Source: Planctomycetota bacterium (lineage in GTDB: Bacteria > Planctomycetota > B15-G4 > JADJEK01). From it: a stretch of DNA of 64,000 bases. The notes under the pieces are model-generated. The model did not search any database. It worked only from the letters and a program-made list of their open reading frames with translations, and was not told where the DNA came from. Made by a program: the position numbers and the translations under genes. Positions 8,934 to 17,304 of this stretch are shown here, piece by piece (position 1 is the first letter of the stretch; each line of letters begins with the position of its first letter). The DNA is taken from positions 80,122 through 144,121 of the forward strand of contig JBGAIQ010000014.1 of assembly GCA_044225365.1 (NCBI GenBank), given 5' to 3'.

Positions 8934-9033
8934 CGCGGCGCGTTGCCCCTCCACCTGCGCCGATTCACGAATACGATCGTTCTCCGCCGCTCGAATTCGA
9001 TTTGAAACGCGACTCGGTCAGCGGACCCATCGT

Positions 9034-9059
9034 TGGAAAATCACTTTCCACTTTGGAAA
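9034..9059. promoter_or_regulatory. AT-rich palindromic operator/enhancer
   Basis: TGGAAA-ATCAC-TTTCCA plus a third overlapping half-site (TTTCCA-CTT-TGGAAA), 100-125 bp upstream of the sigma54 motif. Confidence 0.55.
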
Positions 9060-9090
9060 GGAACTGAACAACGCGTGTCCCCAACGCCGT

Positions 9091-9480
9091 TCAACCGCGC
9101 TCGATTCGATCTTCTTCACGCGGACCGGACTTCCAGGTCGTTCTTCGCTCGAGATGATGGCGCACGATCTTCTCGCGCAGTGTCGGACGACTGATACCGA
9201 GCAAGGCGGCCGATCGCGCCAGGTGCCCACCGGTCTTCGTCAGAGCTTCGACGATCAACGCGACGTCGAGTTGTTCGATGATCCAACGATGCGCATGCAT
9301 CGGCGCCGAGTCGAGGCTCGTCCTCGCGAGCGCCCGCAGCGTCTGTCGTATGTCGAGATCCTCGGTCCGCGGGGCGCCAGCTTCCGATTGGAATGAAACG
9401 GAGTGCCCGAGCGCGGACATCATTCTCTCGAGTTCCAAGGTCGTTTCTTCGTCGCCGTCGACGATGACGATTCGAGCCAA
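9091..9480 (-). CDS. Small Fis-type HTH protein with N-terminal receiver remnant (no AAA+ domain)
   Basis: AGGAGGGAGA before a TTG start; MARIVIVDGDE resembles REC beta1-alpha1; ALTKTGGHLARSAALLGISRPTLREKI is an HTH_8/Fis motif. Confidence 0.8.
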   Translation of the reverse strand: MARIVIVDGDEETTLELERMMSALGHSVSFQSEAGAPRTEDLDIRQTLRALARTSLDSAPMHAHRWIIEQLDVALIVEALTKTGGHLARSAALLGISRPTLREKIVRHHLERRTTWKSGPREEDRIERG

Positions 9481-9600
9481 TCTCCCTCCTTGAAGTGCGT
9501 GGGGCGCGGCGGGTGTAGCGCGGCTACATGTACCGACGCGCGCGACCGACGAATGAAGAGCAATCGTCGGGCCACGACCACTCTTCGTGGCGACGAGCGC

Positions 9601-11457
9601 TCAGGCCGGAGCGGTCGGAGTGATCGAATCGAGAACCGCCCGCACTTTCGAAGTCATTCCGCGCGGCGTGACCGGCTTTTGTAAGAAGAACTCGCTGGAA
9701 TGCAGGATGCCGTGACGAAGGATGGCGTCGTCGGTATAGCCCGACATGAAGAGTACTTTGGCGTGGGGCTGAGCGTCACGCACCCTTGCGGCGAGCTCTC
9801 GACCGTTCATCTTCGGCATCACGACATCGGTGAGCAGGAGATCGATCGGGATCGACGAGTCGGAGCAGAGTCGAAGCGCCTCCGTCGGATCCCGCGCTTC
9901 GATGACTCGATACCCCGCGCGGCTCAAGATCGATTTCGATACTCCTCGCAAGCTCTCGTCGTCGTCCACCAATAGAATCGTCTCGCTCCCGGATGCCAGG
10001 CTGGGCGCCCCGACGGGAGCGGGCTCCGCGGTGCGGCCTTCACCGCGCGGCAGGTAGATCTTGAAGGTGGTGCCAACTCCCACTTCGCTATAGAGCCAGA
10101 TCGCTCCCCCGCTTTGAGCGACGATGCCGAAGACCGTCGACAGGCCGAGTCCTGTGCCCTTTCCCTTGTCCTTCGTCGTGAAGAACGGCTCGTAGATCCG
10201 CGCCTGCGTGGCTTTGTCCATGCCACCGCCCGTATCGCTCACGACCAACACGGAATAGTCGCCGGGGACCATTTTCACGTGATCGATCGTGTACTCCTCG
10301 TCGAGGTGCGCCGTCGAAGTCGAAATCGTGAGCGTGCCACCGTTCGGCATCGCATCGCGCGCATTCACCACGAGGTTCAAGATCACTTGCTCGACCTGAC
10401 TCCGATCGACCAGCACGCGCCACGATGTCGGATCGAGACGGAAATTCAATTCGACGTCTTCGCCGACGATCCGCTCGAGGATCTTCCGCAAGTTGGTGAT
10501 GACGTCGTTGAGATCGAGGACGCTCGGTGCGAGCACTTGCTGGCGACTGAAAGCGAGGAGTTGGCGCGTGAGGTCTGCGGCACGGGTTGCGGCCTTCAAC
10601 ACCTCTTCGAGGGCGCCCCGATGACGATCGGCTGCGGGCAGGTCGTCGAGCACCAGATCGGCGTAGCTCATGATGACGGAGAGGATGTTGTTGAAGTCGT
10701 GAGCGATTCCTCCCGCGAGGCGCCCGATCGACTCCATCTTCTGCGCCTGACGGAATTGCTGCTCGGTTCGCTCGAGTTTCTCGACGGTCCGTTGACGGGC
10801 CTGGATCTCGCTCTCGAGTTGCTTCCTAGCGACGTCCGCGGCCTCGGAACGTTCCTGCAGCTTCGACTCGAGCTCGGTCTTCAGCTCCTGCAGTTCTCGA
10901 TTCGCGTCCTGGACCTCCCTGGCTCGTTGCAACACGTCGACCGCCATGTGTCGGGTCGCCGCCGACTGGCCCTCGTCCGATGCGCCGCGTTCGAGGAGGC
11001 GAATGTACTCCGTGACGTCTTCGACTCGGTGGATGATGAAATCAACCGCGCCCCTCTCGTCGAGCATGGGGCAATTGATCGGGCTCCAGTATCGCTCCTC
11101 GAAACCTCCGCCCTCTGTTTCCGCCCGCTCGATGTCGTACTTCTGAACCGCCATCGTGTCCGGGCGACCCGTCGCGAGAACCCGCTCGAGAGAAGCACGA
11201 AGCGTGGCGACGCCCGTCGCGTGAGCGTCTTCGGGATTGTCGGGAAACGCGTCGAAGATCTCGCGGCCCAGGAGATCGGCGCGGGTCCGCATCGTCGCGT
11301 CGAGGTAGGCATCCGTCACCGCCACGATCTCGAATCGTCGATTCAAGACCAGGAAGCAACCCGGCGCCGACTCGAAGAGTCGCCGATAATCCACGCCAGG
11401 GCTCTGCGGATCGGAAAGCAAATCGGAACCTACTTCTCTCGCCGGACTCGGACGCAA
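9601..11457 (-). CDS. Hybrid PAS sensor histidine kinase/response regulator (CckA-like)
   Basis: PAS_4 (VQKYDI...ERYWSPIN), H-box AGGIAHDFNN, N-box NLVVNARDAM, EPFFTTK/GTGLGL, receiver LLTDVVMP. Confidence 0.95.
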   Translation of the reverse strand: MRPSPAREVGSDLLSDPQSPGVDYRRLFESAPGCFLVLNRRFEIVAVTDAYLDATMRTRADLLGREIFDAFPDNPEDAHATGVATLRASLERVLATGRPDTMAVQKYDIERAETEGGGFEERYWSPINCPMLDERGAVDFIIHRVEDVTEYIRLLERGASDEGQSAATRHMAVDVLQRAREVQDANRELQELKTELESKLQERSEAADVARKQLESEIQARQRTVEKLERTEQQFRQAQKMESIGRLAGGIAHDFNNILSVIMSYADLVLDDLPAADRHRGALEEVLKAATRAADLTRQLLAFSRQQVLAPSVLDLNDVITNLRKILERIVGEDVELNFRLDPTSWRVLVDRSQVEQVILNLVVNARDAMPNGGTLTISTSTAHLDEEYTIDHVKMVPGDYSVLVVSDTGGGMDKATQARIYEPFFTTKDKGKGTGLGLSTVFGIVAQSGGAIWLYSEVGVGTTFKIYLPRGEGRTAEPAPVGAPSLASGSETILLVDDDESLRGVSKSILSRAGYRVIEARDPTEALRLCSDSSIPIDLLLTDVVMPKMNGRELAARVRDAQPHAKVLFMSGYTDDAILRHGILHSSEFFLQKPVTPRGMTSKVRAVLDSITPTAPA

Positions 11458-11554
11458 CCGAAACCGTGCGTCGCAGGGATCTCTCCGCCGCGCCGCACGG
11501 TCATTATGGGATTCGATCCCTGCCGTTTCGAGAGTCGTCCGAACTTTCGAGCGA

Positions 11555-12655
11555 TTAACGTCGATCCGTCGGGTAGAGCACGACCTTCATCGTCTCGTTC
11601 CTGCGGAAGCGGGCCATCGCGTCGGGGAATTCATCGAGGCTCGCCTCGTGCGTTACGAGGTGCGAGACGTCCAGGCCGGCGCGGAGCAGCCCGAGCATCT
11701 GGAACCACGTGTCGTACATCCGGCGCCCGATGATGCCCTTGATGTTCTTGCCTTTGAAAACGACCTCGCCGTTCCAATCGTGGAGCGTGAGCGCCTTCTC
11801 CTTGCCGATACCGAGTTCGACGAGATCGCCGCCCCAGCGCGTCATCTCGAGCGCGTCGTTGATCGCGTCGGGATGACCCGAGATCTCGAGTGCCGCGTCG
11901 ACGCCCTTCCCATCCGTCCTCCGCTTGATCTCCGTCATCGCGAGCTTGCGCTTCTCGAGGCTTCCGGTATCGAGCACCACGACGCGCTCGAGTCCCCGCG
12001 GGTGCTTGGCATTGATCCCTGCGGCCCACTTCTTGGCGTGCGCAACGTTGAAGGGATGCACCTCGGTCACGAAGACCTGTGCAGCGCCCATGAACTCGAC
12101 GACGGCCGCGGCCATCGCACCGATCGGGCCGTACCCGATCACCGCGATGTCACGGCCCGAGACGCTCGTCGCCTGCGCGCAGTGCATCGCGTTGCCGAGC
12201 GCATCGAGGAATGCACCGACCTTGAGCGGCACCGCCGCGCGATCGAGCTTGATGACGTTCGTCGCCGGAACGACGACGTAATCCGCAAAGCTGCCGTCCT
12301 GATGCAGGCCGCAGATGACGGTACGCTCGCAGGCGTGACCATTGCCGGTCTGGCAAGGGACACAACGCCCGCAGACGACGTGCATCTCGGCCGTGACGTA
12401 GTCGTCGATCGCAAAGCCGAACCCCTCGGCACCCGGGCCGAAAGCGTCGATCTCGCCGCAGAACTCGTGGCCGAGCGTGCGCGGCGGTTTCGCCTTCTCG
12501 ATCACCGTCGCATCGCCGGCGCAGAGATGTTTGTCGGTGCCGCAGATGCCGGCCGCGAGGACCTTGATCCGGACCTGGCCGGGCCCCGGCTCCGGAATCG
12601 GCACGTCGCGCAGGAGCTTCGCCTCACCGACGCCCATGAGCCGAACGGCACGCAT
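11555..12655 (-). other. tdh: Tdh moiety of the fusion (MDR-family Zn-dependent L-threonine 3-dehydrogenase)
   Basis: GICGTD, GHE, CGRCVPC-x7-C, LGNAMH, GYGPIG and KGIIGRRMYDTWFQMLGLLRAGLDVSHLVTH, closely matching the Tdh-type C-terminus (KGIYGREMFETW...GLDLSPIITH). Confidence 0.85.
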
Positions 12656-14698
12656 CACGCCGCCCGAGACACTCGGTCGCGGTGCCGCGGGAGTCGCGGC
12701 GCCGTCGGCCGAGGGCTGAGTGATCGGCTCGAGGACACTCGTGAGCGAACGGCTCGCGACTTCGCGCTTCAACGCGTTGATCACGCTGTCGACGCCCATC
12801 GTGCCGATGTTGACGCCGTCGCGTCGGCGAACGTTGACCTGCCCGTTCTCGGCTTCCTTGTCGCCGACGACGAGCACGTAGTTGACCTTCTTCATCGAGG
12901 CATCGCGCACCTTGGAGCCGAGCTTGCCGCCGCCCATGTCGACGCTCGCGCGGATGCCCGCCGCCTTCAGTTTGGAGAGCGCGATCTGACAGGCAGCCTC
13001 GTGACGATCGGTCGCAACGGGGACGATGCGCACCTGTTCGGGCGCGAGCCAGAGCGGGAACGCGCCGCCGAAGTGCTCGATGAGGATCGCGAACATGCGC
13101 TCCATCGAACCCAGGATCGCGCGATGCACCACCACCGGACGAGTCCGGCCGCCTTGCGCGTCGGCGAAGTAGAGATCGAATTTCTCGGGGAGGGAGAAGT
13201 CGACCTGGATCGTCGCGAGCTGCCATTCGCGCTTCAGCGAATCGAGGACCTTGAAGTCGATCTTCGGGCCGTAGAACGCGCCATCACCGGGGGCGACCTC
13301 GTAGGCCGCGCCGAGTCGTTTCAACGACGTTGCGATCGCGGCTTCGGCGTTGTCCCACATCGCTTCGCTGCCGGTTCGCGATTCCGGACGCGTCGCGAAG
13401 AACAGCTTCACGTCCTCGAATCCGAAGACTCCATATACCTCGCGCACGAATGCCACGAGCGCTTCGATCTCGTCCTGGAGTTGTTCCGGGGCGCAGTAGA
13501 TGTGCGCGTCGTCCTGCGTGAACGATCGCACGCGCGTGAGGCCACTCATCACGCCGGCCTTCTCGAAGCGATGGCAGAGCCCAAACTCCGCGAGACGCAG
13601 CGGTAGATCGCGATACGAGCGGATGTCCTGCTTGAACACGAAGGCCGAGCCGGGGCAATTCATCGGCTTCATGCCGATCCGTGGCTCGTCGAGCACTTCC
13701 TTCGGGTCGCCGTCATGGTGCACGAAGAACATGTTCTCGCGGTAATGCGTCATGTGGCCCGTCGTGCGCCAGACGCTCGTGTCGAGGACGACCGGGGTCT
13801 TCACCTCGACGTAGCCCTTCGCCTTCAGCTTCTCGCGCATCATCTCTTCGATGGCGTTGCGGCACACCATGCCGTTCGGCAGCCAGATCGGATGCCCGGG
13901 GGCTTCGGGGATGATGTGGAACAGAGCGAGGTCCTTGCCGAGCAGGCGATGATCGCGCTTCTTCGCTTCTTCGCGATTCTTCAGAAACTCATCGAGTTCC
14001 TCCTTCTTGAAGAACGCGGTCGCGTAGATGCGCTGCAACGACTCGCGCTTCTCGTTTCCCCGCCAGTACGCGGCGGCGACCGAGAGCACCTTGAACGCCT
14101 TGCCGACCTTGCCAGTCGAGGGAAGGTGCGGACCGCGACAGAGGTCGGTGAATTCGCCCTGCGAGTAGAAGGAAATCGGTGCGTCGTCGGGCAATTCGTT
14201 GACGAGTTCCTTCTTCAGCTTCGCTCGACCCGCGCCATCGAGTCGCGCGCAGGCGTCGGCCTTGCTGTCGGCGATGAAGCGCGAGAGTTGCAGGTCCTCG
14301 TCGACGATCTTCTTCATCTCCGCTTCGACTTCATCGAGGAACTCGGGAGTGAAGGCTTTGTCGACCTCGAAGTCGTAGTAGAAGCCGTCGTCGATCACGG
14401 GGCCGATCGCGAACTCCACCTTGTCGCGGCCGAGCTTGCGCGCAACTGCCTGAGCGAGGACGTGCGCCGCGGTGTGGCGGAGGACCTCTAGGCCTTCCTT
14501 GGTGCCCGGATTCACGATCGCGAGCGCGCCGCCGGAATAGAGCGGAGTGTGAAGGTCGAAGATGCGGCCATCGACCGTGACCGCGAGCGTCTTCTTCGCG
14601 TCGGGGATCTTGGACAACAGCTCTTTGATCGTTCGGCCCGCCGCCAGGGTGAGCTTCGATCCGTCGGCCAGGGTGAAGGTCAGCTCGCTTCCGCTCAT
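11555..14698 (-). CDS. thrS: Threonine--tRNA ligase fused in frame to L-threonine 3-dehydrogenase
   Basis: aa 1-~652: TGS, editing domain (RHTAAH, DLCRGPH), catalytic core (KPMNCP, GLTRVRSFTQDDAH, HRAILGSMER), anticodon domain; ~30-aa Pro/Ala/Ser/Thr linker; aa 682-1047 Zn-dependent dehydrogenase. GGAGA SD upstream of the ATG. Confidence 0.95.
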   Translation of the reverse strand: MSGSELTFTLADGSKLTLAAGRTIKELLSKIPDAKKTLAVTVDGRIFDLHTPLYSGGALAIVNPGTKEGLEVLRHTAAHVLAQAVARKLGRDKVEFAIGPVIDDGFYYDFEVDKAFTPEFLDEVEAEMKKIVDEDLQLSRFIADSKADACARLDGAGRAKLKKELVNELPDDAPISFYSQGEFTDLCRGPHLPSTGKVGKAFKVLSVAAAYWRGNEKRESLQRIYATAFFKKEELDEFLKNREEAKKRDHRLLGKDLALFHIIPEAPGHPIWLPNGMVCRNAIEEMMREKLKAKGYVEVKTPVVLDTSVWRTTGHMTHYRENMFFVHHDGDPKEVLDEPRIGMKPMNCPGSAFVFKQDIRSYRDLPLRLAEFGLCHRFEKAGVMSGLTRVRSFTQDDAHIYCAPEQLQDEIEALVAFVREVYGVFGFEDVKLFFATRPESRTGSEAMWDNAEAAIATSLKRLGAAYEVAPGDGAFYGPKIDFKVLDSLKREWQLATIQVDFSLPEKFDLYFADAQGGRTRPVVVHRAILGSMERMFAILIEHFGGAFPLWLAPEQVRIVPVATDRHEAACQIALSKLKAAGIRASVDMGGGKLGSKVRDASMKKVNYVLVVGDKEAENGQVNVRRRDGVNIGTMGVDSVINALKREVASRSLTSVLEPITQPSADGAATPAAPRPSVSGGVMRAVRLMGVGEAKLLRDVPIPEPGPGQVRIKVLAAGICGTDKHLCAGDATVIEKAKPPRTLGHEFCGEIDAFGPGAEGFGFAIDDYVTAEMHVVCGRCVPCQTGNGHACERTVICGLHQDGSFADYVVVPATNVIKLDRAAVPLKVGAFLDALGNAMHCAQATSVSGRDIAVIGYGPIGAMAAAVVEFMGAAQVFVTEVHPFNVAHAKKWAAGINAKHPRGLERVVVLDTGSLEKRKLAMTEIKRRTDGKGVDAALEISGHPDAINDALEMTRWGGDLVELGIGKEKALTLHDWNGEVVFKGKNIKGIIGRRMYDTWFQMLGLLRAGLDVSHLVTHEASLDEFPDAMARFRRNETMKVVLYPTDRR

Positions 14699-14908
14699 CG
14701 ATCAGGTCTCCGGTGTCTCGCGCCCGCCCGAACTCTCGGGCCTGGCCGAATCGGAACAGGATATCGGGTCGCTGCCGCAGGACATAGGGCATGGGTGCCC
14801 GTCGCTCCGACATCGTGAATTGCGGGCGATTCCGAGGATTCCGCGGGACACCCGGGATGACACCTGGATCTGTACTGCGCACCTCGTTCCTCGAACCGGA
14901 TCCTCGTC

Positions 14909-16213
14909 ATGCGCCCTTCGATCCTCACCGCCCTGTTCTCTGCGTTCTTCCTCACCACGAATGGGTTTGCGACCATCGAAGCGATCGATGTGAAGCCCGG
15001 GAAGCCGTTCGTCGACCCGCCCGGGAAGCCGCAGCCGAACGCCGGCTGCGGCAGCATCTCGGCATCCAAGAATGGTCGCTACGTCGCGTTCTTGTCGGGT
15101 GCGACGAACCTCGTGAAGGGACTGCATCCGAACAAGACGCAGGCCTACCGCACCGATCGAGTGACGAACACGACGATCTGCATCTCGCTCGCGAAGAACC
15201 ACGCACCGGCGAATGACGACGTGCTCGATGTCTCTCTCTCGGGCAACGGGCGCTACGCTGTGATCGTGACGCGTGCGTCGAACCTCGGGACGCCGTTCAA
15301 CGGATTCGTCCAGGCGATCTTCGAGGACCTGAAGACCGGAAAGCGCCTCACCGCATCGCTCGCGGCATTCCAGCCGTATTTGAATCTCGACTGTGATCGG
15401 GCGTTCATCAGCGGCGATGGCTCGACGGTGGTCTTCGAGACGGCGGCCTCGAACGTCCTTGCGGTCGGCAACAACGGGAAGAAACAACTCTACGCCTGGG
15501 ATCGCTTCTCGAACGATGTCGATGCGTTGTCCTTCAGCCCCCAGGGTCAACCCGGCAACGCGGACACCCATGGATCGAGCGGTGTCGGAATCTCGAAGGA
15601 CGGCAAGTTCGTGACCTTTGCCTCCGACGCGACGAACCTAGTGTCCGCGAACCCCGGCAACCCGTCGTACCTCGACGTCTTCGTGCGCGACCGCGCGGTC
15701 GGAACGACGGAGCTCATTTCGAGGAACTTCTCCGGAGGCGCCGCCAACAAGGCGAGCACCCATCCGTCGATCTCCGAAGACGGTCGGTACGTCGGCTACG
15801 TCTCGACGGCGAGCAACATCACCACGGACGACAACGATGGCAATGACTACGACTGCTTCTTCTACGATCGCCAGTTGAATCTGAGCTCGCGCATCGATGG
15901 GTACAACGATGGCGATGCCTTGATGACTTTGCTCTCGACGACCATTTCGGCAGATGGACGGTATCTCTTCGCGCTCGGAACGAAGATGCATCCGACCGAT
16001 TCGAATCTCCATATCCAGAATGCGCGCCGCTACGACCGGCTGACGGGCGAGACGGTGGTGTACCAAGTCGCGGCTCCGCTGTTCGTTCAGCAGTACGACT
16101 GGTTCTATGAGATCGCGATCTCGGGCAACGCCAAGAAGCTCTTCTTCGTATCGGCGAGTCCGATCCTGCCGAAGGCCTCGGACACCTATCAGATCTACGC
16201 AACGAAGCTGTGA
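14909..16213 (+). CDS. Secreted TolB/PD40-like beta-propeller protein
   Basis: Signal peptide; repeated S-x-DG-R/K-Y/F-V-x-F-x-S-x-ATNLV blades and DVFVRDR motif. Confidence 0.85.
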   Translation: MRPSILTALFSAFFLTTNGFATIEAIDVKPGKPFVDPPGKPQPNAGCGSISASKNGRYVAFLSGATNLVKGLHPNKTQAYRTDRVTNTTICISLAKNHAPANDDVLDVSLSGNGRYAVIVTRASNLGTPFNGFVQAIFEDLKTGKRLTASLAAFQPYLNLDCDRAFISGDGSTVVFETAASNVLAVGNNGKKQLYAWDRFSNDVDALSFSPQGQPGNADTHGSSGVGISKDGKFVTFASDATNLVSANPGNPSYLDVFVRDRAVGTTELISRNFSGGAANKASTHPSISEDGRYVGYVSTASNITTDDNDGNDYDCFFYDRQLNLSSRIDGYNDGDALMTLLSTTISADGRYLFALGTKMHPTDSNLHIQNARRYDRLTGETVVYQVAAPLFVQQYDWFYEIAISGNAKKLFFVSASPILPKASDTYQIYATKL

Positions 16214-16280
16214 GCGGTCGCCGCTTCGACATCGATCGGTAGAGTGCTTTCGCCTTCGATTCGATGGACCGGACCCGCGA

Positions 16281-16958
16281 ATGCCACTACCTCTCGACAC
16301 GATCCTGTCCCGACTGGCTGACCGCTACGGCAAGATCCCGGAGCCGCCGCCGAAGACCGCATTCGAGTCGATCCTCCACGAATGCGCTTGCTACTTGGTG
16401 GACGACGAGCGACGGGATGCGGTCTTCGAAGAGCTGAAACGGCGCGTCGGCTGCTCGCCTCGCGAGCTGCTGCGGGCCGATCGAGGTGAACTCCTCGCGA
16501 TCCTGGAGCCCGGCGGCATGCGCCCGCCGATGCGACTGGAGAAGGTGATCGACGCAGCAACGATCTGCATCGAAACGCATGGGGGCGATCTCGATTCGGT
16601 ACTCGGATTGCCCGTGAAGGCCGCCGTCAAGGAACTGCGCCGCTATCCCGGCATTGGCATCCCGAGCGCACAGCGAATCCTGCTGTTCCACGCCAAGGTA
16701 CCCTCGCTCGCTCTCGAGTCGAACGGCCTACGAGTTCTGTTGCGATTGGGACACGGCCGCGAGGATCCGCGTTACGACGTGGCCTACAAGTCGGTTCAGA
16801 CCTCTCTGGCGGCCGAGGTCGGCACCGACTGCAAGCGCCTGACCCGCGCCCATCTATTGTTGCGCCATCACGGGAAGGTTACCTGCAAGCGCAGCGAACC
16901 GTGCTGCGACGAGTGCCCGCTCGCGAAGGATTGCCCATCGCGAGCAACTTCGCGTTGA
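16281..16958 (+). CDS. HhH-GPD endonuclease III-like protein with 4Fe-4S motif
   Basis: HhH LRRYPGIGIPSA; C-x6-C-x2-C-x5-C (CKRSEPCCDECPLAKDC); ATG at 16281. Confidence 0.82.
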   Translation: MPLPLDTILSRLADRYGKIPEPPPKTAFESILHECACYLVDDERRDAVFEELKRRVGCSPRELLRADRGELLAILEPGGMRPPMRLEKVIDAATICIETHGGDLDSVLGLPVKAAVKELRRYPGIGIPSAQRILLFHAKVPSLALESNGLRVLLRLGHGREDPRYDVAYKSVQTSLAAEVGTDCKRLTRAHLLLRHHGKVTCKRSEPCCDECPLAKDCPSRATSR

Positions 16959-17304
16959 CGGCGGCGGCTGCGATCCGTATCCGCCAAAGTTGGCGGCGGC
17001 GGACGCGGTCCGTAACCGCCGCCAAAATTCCCAGGGTCGGCGGCGGCGGCTGCGATCCGTATCCGCCGGTTGCGGCGGCGGCGGCTGCGATCCGTATCCG
17101 CCGGTTGCGGCGGCGGCGGCTGCGATCCGTATCCGCCGCCAAAATTCCCAGGGTCGGCGGCGGCGGCTGCGATCCGTATCCGCCGCCAAAATTCCCAGGG
17201 TCGGCGGCGGCGGCTGCGATCCGTATCCGCCGGTTGCGGCGGCGGCGGCGGCTGCGATCCGTATCCGCCGGTTGCGGCGGCGGCGGACGCGGTCCGTGAC
17301 CGCC
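16959..17304 (+). repeat. Intergenic array of 9 imperfect-hairpin repeat units
   Basis: Core (GGC)nGGCTGCGATCCGTATCCGCC, variant GGACGCGGTCCGTRACCGCC; linkers GGTTGC (x4), AAAATTCCCAGGGTC (x3), AAAGTT (x1). Confidence 0.92.

Follow-up and report, generated by a model that had tools for sequence, protein, structure and literature searches.

The stretch of DNA analyzed here (the window) comprises 64,000 nucleotides (nt) of contig JBGAIQ010000014.1 from an uncultured planctomycete (Planctomycetota bacterium, GenBank assembly GCA_044225365.1; genome G000 in our sample), a metagenome-type assembly of 103 contigs that is 94% complete. On its minus strand, at positions 11555-14698, the window carries one open reading frame (ORF) of 1047 codons plus a stop codon (11555-11557), in which a threonyl-tRNA synthetase (ThrRS) is joined to a dehydrogenase of the L-threonine 3-dehydrogenase (Tdh) type; the gene is referred to as thrS::tdh. 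An initial annotation, made from the sequence alone, had described a single ORF of 1047 amino acids (aa), and the ORF list bears this out. The ThrRS half comprises an N-terminal domain in the position of the TGS domain (residues 1-65, 14504-14698; aligned with Staphylococcus aureus ThrRS from residue 5), an editing domain with H-x-x-x-H and C-R-G-P-H motifs (residues ~66-240, 13979-14503; Pfam tRNA_SAD, 175-225), a class II catalytic core (residues ~241-545, 13064-13978; Pfam tRNA-synt_2b, 340-543) and an anticodon-binding domain (residues ~546-650, 12749-13063; Pfam HGTP_anticodon, 555-645). A linker rich in Ala, Pro, Ser, Gly and Thr follows (residues 651-681, 12656-12748), recognized by low identity, a low-confidence predicted structure, and the tails and spacers of split relatives. 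The Tdh-type zinc- and NAD-dependent dehydrogenase begins at Met682 (residues 682-1047, 11558-12655; supported by NF003808, PDB matches and active-site columns) and contains a catalytic GroES-like domain with both zinc sites (residues 705-819, 12242-12586; Pfam ADH_N and alignment) and an NAD-binding Rossmann domain with a G-x-G-P-I-G motif (residues 858-1005, 11684-12127; Pfam ADH_zinc_N).

The ThrRS half matches the thrS equivalog model TIGR00418 of NCBIfam with 641.6 bits (cut-off, 383.65) over residues 74-646; residues 7-639 are collinear with residues 5-631 of S. aureus ThrRS (1NYQ; E 1.4e-164), and full-length alignments to 1NYQ, 6VU9 and 1QF6 gave E-values of 1e-159 to 1e-164. Residues C348, H399, H525, H75/H79 and C187/H191 are identical to those of S. 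aureus ThrRS in the alignment; from the Escherichia coli enzyme, we take C348/H399/H525 to be the active-site zinc ligands, and the H-x-x-x-H and C-x-x-x-H motifs to be the editing site. The zinc ligands and editing motifs are invariant in eight fused proteins, except for replacements of H75 and H191 in one metagenomic protein (P0005). The ThrRS domains named in the initial annotation were confirmed by Pfam for editing, catalysis and anticodon binding; a TGS domain was not reported by Pfam at E<=0.01, yet the N-terminus aligns and folds (predicted local distance difference test, pLDDT, 86-96). ThrRS is a dimer. A genome-wide search with TIGR00418 returned one match over the cut-off (644 bits) and five others of at most 41.6 bits, and no standalone thrS was found in G000. 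The tdh-linked gene is the sole full-length thrS also in G005, G169, G043 and G064, and the fusion gene is regarded as essential because no other thrS in G000 (or in G005) passes the cut-off. To judge from these motifs and those of the dehydrogenase, both halves look catalytically intact.

In the dehydrogenase half, residues C38, T40, H43, H63, E64, C95, C98, C101, C109, D151 and G174-G179 (domain numbering) are invariant in fused, split and E. coli Tdh; C38 and H63-E64 are the catalytic zinc ligands, C95/C98/C101/C109 the structural-zinc cysteines, and T40/H43 the proton relay. The G-x-G-P-I-G motif is accompanied by an acidic residue that terminates the second Rossmann strand, a position at which an acidic residue goes with a preference for NAD(H) over NADPH. 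Among the NCBIfam families, Tdh scores best, with a lead of about 145 bits over the runner-up (IolM-type, 156 bits), and Tdh structures take the first five places among the PDB matches (2DQ4, 2DFV, 2D8A, 5KIA and 3GFB; E 1e-62 to 1e-67, next match 1e-37). The initial annotation had called this half a complete Tdh-type dehydrogenase, which stands for the motifs and for the best family; the curated Tdh cut-offs, however, are not reached (NF003808, 297-300.3 bits against 380; TIGR00692, 279-281.5 against 458.35). Further, the NAD domain contains a clade-specific insertion of ~16-18 aa relative to 2DQ4 and E. coli Tdh, and the loop after the catalytic Cys/His (domain residues 43-56; window ~12488-12529), which reads aromatic-x-Trp-Asp in other Tdh, is changed to Cys-x-Gly-Asp in the fused proteins and in the split relative G169. 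These three features might point to a related zinc-dependent dehydrogenase with another substrate, for which the link to threonine would be only apparent. We consider this explanation very improbable: the kbl-adjacent relatives that were scored also lie under the Tdh cut-off (305-368 bits; E. coli Tdh, 647.8), and the cut-off therefore excludes the whole clade; Tdh leads the families and the PDB matches as given above; and kbl, whose product acts on the Tdh product, is directly downstream of the fused tdh in genus g6 (G005, G010) and of tdh in four split relatives. The loop change, being common to the fused clade and split G169, predates the fusion. Also, two metagenomic proteins in which the same Tdh-type domain is fused to a Kbl-type aminotransferase domain (P0012, 771 aa; P0013, 739 aa) fall in the same tree. 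The dehydrogenase half is thus best read as a divergent Tdh, with threonine as its putative substrate. As a separate observation, one further protein (P0011, 704 aa, labeled Gemmatimonadetes) combines the same Tdh-type domain with a thioredoxin-reductase-type domain.

The kbl gene had been reported as absent from the window; in G000 it lies outside of it, on the same strand of the same contig at a distance of ~24 kb (C78:66430-67593; TIGR01822, 643.8 bits, cut-off 493). In family f4, kbl is directly downstream in five of six loci.

The linker comprises 30 aa after an S-R-S motif in the window protein and 29-41 aa across the eight fused proteins, with an overall composition of 20% Ala, 17% Pro, 10% Ser, 10% Gly and 8% Thr. 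The initial annotation had judged a linker of about 30 aa to be coding from its G- or C-ending codons, and this agrees with a third-position G+C of 0.80 for the linker of the window gene (0.85-0.86 for the two halves); overall, including genus g6, the values are 0.80-0.94 for linkers and 0.84-0.96 for the flanking domains. The G+C content is 0.60-0.71 along the gene, with no break at the junction. The junction itself reads GTG ATG, with a TGA in another frame as had been pointed out, and this TGATG, in an assembly of metagenome type, raised the concern that the fusion is an artifact or a decaying gene, resulting from an indel or a chimeric contig in the assembly, or from recent read-through that disabled the gene. 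Logan contigs (contigs, not raw reads) of four sequencing runs (X1, X2, X4, X5) were mapped on 12300-13100. Two contigs from the probable source sample bridge the junction with no differences and no gaps (X1 record 2, 12458-13100; X2 record 7, 12300-12729), and an independent study contributed one (X5 record 24, 12570-12738) that covers the complete linker with eight substitutions, six of them itemized, and no gaps; the X4 contigs leave 12678-12704 uncovered. No insertions or deletions were listed in the contigs of any of the four runs over 12300-13100. Every one of the 25 substitutions listed for X4 and X5 at 12300-13020 leaves the encoded residue of the fused frame unchanged; 24 affect third codon positions and one the first position of a Leu codon, and three of the 25 lie within the linker (residues 667, 672 and 677). 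The TGATG is specific to G000 and coincidental, because the junction in genus g6 is GTC ATG, without a stop in any frame across the linker. Given also that five other genomes and ten metagenome protein clusters share the fusion, and that it is the sole thrS of G000, the artifact explanation is refuted, and with it the concern over an assembly indel; the synonymous strain substitutions show a continuous fused frame that is evidently under selection.

The thrS::tdh fusion was found in all six genomes of genera g1, g4 and g6, as the search for the same architecture in other genomes proposed by the initial annotation revealed: five of these (G000, G005, G008, G010, G011) have fused open frames of 1048-1205 aa, and in the sixth (G003), where a contig ends, ThrRS and the first 110 aa of Tdh are in a single frame of 806 aa. 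For the family's remaining four genera (g2, g3, g5, g7), no Tdh match was obtained at E<=1e-40, and their ThrRS are only 38-49% identical to that of the window. In a search of 5.8 billion proteins, restricted to long proteins containing the Tdh part, ten protein clusters were obtained with both domain sets (74-95% identical over the Tdh part). An exhaustive HMMER scan of 1.84 billion representatives, with the full-length protein as query, yielded only three that match both halves (P0004, P0006, P0010), all of this clade, followed by standalone ThrRS with at most 621 bits. Seven other long ThrRS among these matches were inspected: five are extended only at the N-terminus, and the other two carry a tRNA-binding domain and an amino-acid transporter, respectively. 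The latter two are either real genes or merged models: P0145 is a ThrRS with a C-terminal tRNA_bind domain, and P0130 (1158 aa) a complete ThrRS followed by a transmembrane Aa_trans domain (250 bits). Among the eight fused proteins, mean pairwise identity is highest in the Tdh half (0.83) and lowest in the linker (0.40), with 0.68 for the N-terminal/editing part, 0.75 for the catalytic core and 0.73 for the anticodon-binding domain. In public annotation, the fused proteins are plain threonyl-tRNA synthetases. Three long frames at other thrS genes were rejected as fusions: those of G002 and G026 (1180 and 1293 aa) are upstream read-through in high-G+C DNA, and the 1059-aa frame of G043 is out of frame with thrS.

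Unfused, adjacent thrS and tdh were found in five planctomycete genomes of other classes, i.e. G169 (locus L040), G043, G064, G066 and G080, in four of which kbl is next after tdh (G169, G043, G066 and G080). In G169, 74 nt with a GGAGG before the ATG separate the thrS stop from the tdh start; the spacer is 143 nt in G043, 8 nt in G066 and a single nucleotide in G064 (TAG C ATG), where therefore the loss of one base would join the two frames (no tdh start was located in G080, and spacer lengths refer to the other four). Three of the five split tdh-linked ThrRS (L040, L127, L132) end in low-complexity tails of 16-29 aa, rich in Ala, Pro, Gly, Lys and Thr, and the start of these tails is homologous to the start of the fused linker; no such tail was found in four standalone ThrRS examined to their ends (G001, G002, G004, G026). 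The linker is accordingly traced to a C-terminal tail of ThrRS together with what was once intergenic spacer.

A ThrRS tree of 25 rows (leaving out P0001, P0002, P0004, P0007 and G011) places the 12 tdh-linked rows apart from the 13 standalone rows (support 100/99); the seven fused rows group as a clade (100/99), to which split G169 is sister (100/100). In a Tdh tree of 38 rows (four paralogs of G000 dropped, as matches of <250 aa), the nine fused rows also form one clade (82/43), again with G169 as sister (93/100). The tdh-linked ThrRS clade takes in other classes and excludes the ThrRS of the other genera of the window's family; this distribution could reflect either horizontal movement of the cluster as a unit or differential loss of two old lineages. 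G080 encodes both types of ThrRS (L130, L131), a standalone copy and a copy immediately preceding tdh-kbl, which fall on opposite sides of the main split in the tree. Two further genomes have two thrS matches each over the cut-off (G299, loci L133 and L134; G130, L135 and contig C333); both copies of G299 and one of G130 are of the standalone type in the ThrRS tree. In a phylum-wide sample, 26 of 401 genomes have this Tdh type (E<=1e-80), comprising four with the fusion, five with split, adjacent genes and 17 with thrS on another contig or more than 2 Mb away; two of these 17 rest on small contigs, for which adjacency is not strictly excluded.

According to the Rosetta-stone principle, two proteins may be separate and adjacent in some genomes and one chain in others. 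This is the pattern found here, with separate, adjacent orthologs in related genomes and a fused clade that is sister to split G169 in both trees, which show the fusion to be, as far as these phylogenies reach, of single origin. The initial annotation had proposed that genes always separate in close relatives would speak against the fusion: some relatives do have split genes (G169, G043, G064, G066 and G080), and the nearest are all fused; the split relatives therefore explain the origin of the fusion and do not refute it.

An AlphaFold2 model, computed on an alignment of 116 rows (fused proteins plus standalone ThrRS and standalone Tdh), has a mean pLDDT of 90.1 and a predicted template modeling score (pTM) of 0.63. 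Its sole long stretch with pLDDT <50 is residues 649-678, and residues 652-680 have no secondary structure. The model fits two well-folded modules on a flexible tether, whose relative position is undefined and which may contact each other. A fold from an eight-row alignment (mean pLDDT 43.4, pTM 0.26) was unusable and was replaced by this one; a complex prediction for ThrRS residues 240-650 against Tdh residues 682-1047, also from eight-row alignments, scored 0.00 and gave no answer.

The initial annotation had proposed a threonine-partitioning switch, gated by tRNA occupancy or the NAD/NADH state, or a higher-order assembly, ideas for which the sequence offers no support. In such a protein the halves would dock, or ThrRS dimers and Tdh tetramers would close into one particle, and tRNA-Thr, threonine or NADH bound at one half would alter the activity of the other. 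The dimeric nature of ThrRS and the dimer-tetramer equilibrium and cooperativity described for E. coli Tdh (PMC12693531) imply that a multivalent fusion must form some higher-order species, and the fusion has been kept in three genera with a highly conserved Tdh half. The linker, however, is the least conserved part of the protein, varies in length and is predicted to be disordered, as is usual for domains that act independently; a conserved docking motif was not apparent; module placement in the model is undefined (pTM 0.63) despite a mean pLDDT of 90; and the split relatives manage with separate proteins. We regard such a switch or assembly as unlikely. A further reading is that the tether serves as a regulatory device, with the charging state of ThrRS (tRNA-Thr, threonine, ATP) gating threonine oxidation within a defined complex of ThrRS dimers and Tdh oligomers or, as a variant, that reversed Kbl and Tdh feed the tethered ThrRS; this appears doubtful. 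If gating were true, threonine would be burnt only when translation is satisfied, and the protein would be a use-or-degrade switch at the protein level.

We consider it probable that thrS::tdh is a bifunctional gene for the only ThrRS of the organism and an NAD-dependent Tdh, held together by a disordered tether of about 30 aa, with halves that act independently, and that it arose through loss of a stop codon. The fusion would have originated once, in an ancestor of three genera of an uncultured planctomycete family, within a pre-existing thrS-tdh-kbl cluster with its own ThrRS lineage, through loss of the thrS stop codon and conversion of a short spacer into coding sequence; this cluster survives unfused in related lineages. 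The ThrRS half would charge tRNA-Thr, the Tdh half would oxidize free threonine to 2-amino-3-ketobutyrate, and the separately encoded Kbl would split the latter into glycine and acetyl-CoA. The older gene linkage would have provided co-expression of a charging and a consuming enzyme, which the fusion would fix at a 1:1 ratio; Tdh tied in this way to ThrRS would compete with it for free threonine. For E. coli Tdh, PMC12693531 gives a dimer-tetramer equilibrium and cooperative threonine binding with a K0.5 of ~0.29 mM, near the cellular threonine level. The enzyme activities, the catabolic direction and the independence of the domains are what we infer from sequence, as is any advantage of being fused, which may be nearly neutral.

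Several points weigh against this reading, in addition to the missed Tdh cut-offs, the NAD-domain insertion and the changed active-site loop. Support for the monophyly of the fused rows in the Tdh tree is modest (82/43). With kbl ~24 kb off in G000 and ~3.5 kb away in genus g4, tight co-expression with kbl was therefore not kept after the fusion. The former start codon is retained, as Met682 is invariant in all eight fused proteins, and it is preceded by a G-rich stretch similar to that upstream of tdh in split G066; free Tdh might thus also be translated separately from Met682. Finally, class and order of the host coincide in the genome taxonomy applied and comprise 42 species genomes; among the 41 relatives, thrC went unmatched in 8 of the 13 with this Tdh type versus 7 of the 28 without it, which gives a biosynthetic role some room.

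The last of these points bears on the direction of the pathway. Threonine can be made via Kbl and Tdh, as stated in PMC3439479, and in a make-and-charge arrangement Kbl and the Tdh half would run in reverse (glycine, acetyl-CoA and NADH to threonine), with the tethered ThrRS capturing the product. Apart from the chemical feasibility of the reverse route, an operon with thrS makes regulatory sense for a biosynthetic pair, and thrC was unmatched with both models in G005, G010, G011 and G169, where thrS, tdh and kbl are immediately adjacent; a precedent for an amino-acid-supplying domain on a synthetase exists in the methionyl-tRNA synthetase (MetRS)-aminotransferase fusion of Mycoplasma penetrans (MpMetRS; PMC7694997). 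G000, however, encodes thrC (NF006050, 561 bits; cut-off, 303) and homoserine dehydrogenase (hom); for homoserine kinase, no TIGR00191 or TIGR00938 match over the cut-off was obtained in G000, and a candidate is given by a full-length TIGR02535 match of 334 bits, below its cut-off of 446. The genome further encodes serine hydroxymethyltransferase (SHMT) and a threonine-aldolase-type lyase; with thrC, hom, SHMT and this lyase present, Tdh and Kbl are therefore needed neither for threonine nor for glycine. thrC is present also in G003, G008, G043, G064 and G066. Moreover, the acidic residue that ends the second Rossmann strand suggests use of NAD(H) rather than NADPH, and the keto intermediate is short-lived (half-life at pH 7, <1 to 10 min; PMC3439479). 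Taken together, the reverse direction seems improbable. As an observation on the SHMT gene itself, its match (G000:C101:85979-87229, minus strand) sits in an open frame of 1249 aa, which is either read-through or another fusion.

The association of Tdh with missing thrC was rejected as evidence for a biosynthetic role. The eight Tdh-bearing genomes without thrC represent only two genera, genera without Tdh also lack thrC, and all nine thrC-lacking genomes that were tested (G002, G007, G005, G010, G011, G014, G017, G020 and G169; 84-95% complete) were also without a match for trpB, which is present in two thrC-bearing genomes of genus g4; leuB matches of 255-272 bits, under the cut-off of 353, were obtained in all 11 genomes and are uninformative. 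The loss of thrC looks like general auxotrophy in scavenging lineages, which would be at least as compatible with a catabolic Tdh, and the pattern suggests that auxotrophy for multiple amino acids is widespread in parts of this planctomycete class.

The initial annotation knew of no earlier description of this fusion, and no ThrRS-dehydrogenase fusion and no thrS-tdh-kbl cluster was found in the literature, including synthetase surveys, with subscription journals and supplements outside the scope of the search. It is very rare for a synthetase to be fused to a metabolic enzyme of its own amino acid. The closest likeness is MpMetRS, called the first known synthetase with aminotransferase activity by its authors, in which a synthetase is likewise fused to an enzyme of its own amino acid. 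According to PMC7694997, its domains are functionally independent, as would apply here; an internal Met start yields a second product there, and thrS::tdh has the conserved former start Met682; and its authors, too, left open whether the fusion is adaptive or neutral. In contrast to thrS::tdh, with a C-terminal, zinc- and NAD-dependent domain that nominally removes the amino acid, the appended domain of MpMetRS is N-terminal, dependent on pyridoxal phosphate, and makes the amino acid; also, MpMetRS was reported from one species, whereas thrS::tdh occurs in three genera with unfused operon ancestors extant.

E. coli Tdh (EC 1.1.1.103; kbl-tdh operon, NC_000913.3 b3616/b3617) shares with the Tdh half the fold, the zinc ligands, the NAD motif, the E90/H92/D151 columns and the kbl linkage; it differs in sequence (36% identity), in its NF003808 score (648 bits versus 300 here) and in the NAD-domain insertion, which is present only here. 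The gene order in E. coli is kbl-tdh without thrS, whereas in the thrS-linked clusters thrS is followed by tdh and then kbl, with tdh fused to ThrRS in the window. Canonical ThrRS (1NYQ of S. aureus, 1QF6 of E. coli) are collinear with the ThrRS half over their full length and have the same editing and catalytic motifs; the window ThrRS differs in belonging to the distinct tdh-linked lineage and in its low-complexity C-terminal extension into a second enzyme. Like other Rosetta-stone cases, the two proteins are separate and adjacent or in one chain with a low-complexity linker; unlike them, the partners would compete for the same free amino acid, and are neither consecutive pathway steps nor two synthetases, such as in the metazoan GluRS-ProRS fusion named in PMC11580382. 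The Kbl-Tdh fusions from metagenomes (P0012, P0013) have the same Tdh-type domain (47% and 36% identity) and a functionally linked partner; in contrast to the synthetase here, this partner is the next pathway enzyme, which is sensible for handover of an unstable intermediate.

On balance, our verdict is that thrS::tdh represents a conserved, single-origin case of a rare arrangement, in which a synthetase carries an added enzyme that acts on the synthetase's own amino acid, and that its descent from an operon can be traced. Each copy of an essential ThrRS would here carry a competitor for its own substrate. The relatives with split but adjacent genes, and G080 with both ThrRS lineages, offer natural controls for the testable question of whether operon-derived fusions add stoichiometry, assembly or allostery, or are neutral. 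Irrespective of the role of the fusion, the association of a distinct ThrRS lineage with tdh-kbl in different planctomycete classes is a new neighborhood signal, which links tRNA charging to threonine cleavage.

In the vicinity of the gene, an Rfam search over 9000-17000 (E<=1) gave no matches, and thus no known leader or T-box, and no tRNA-Thr gene is located near the cluster. A promoter and terminator scan of 11300-15000 returned a single promoter-like site, which lies downstream of thrS::tdh, and a single terminator-like site, which lies within the gene but on the opposite strand; the counts were at or near those of shuffled sequence, and the scan was uninformative. Of the 20 sequencing runs listed as containing the region, none was of RNA. 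Over eight loci, no conserved neighbors were found beyond ThrRS, Tdh, Kbl and shadow ORFs. In the window, the downstream neighbor (9601-11457, minus strand), after a gap of 97 nt, encodes a hybrid histidine kinase (PAS-HisKA-HATPase-receiver), and the divergent upstream neighbor (14909-16213, plus strand) a PD40 (beta-propeller repeat) protein; neither is kept beside the cluster in relatives. Antisense or out-of-frame ORFs of up to 652 aa (among others, 11648-13606 and 10114-11733, plus strand) are shadows in high-G+C DNA, which recur in relatives.

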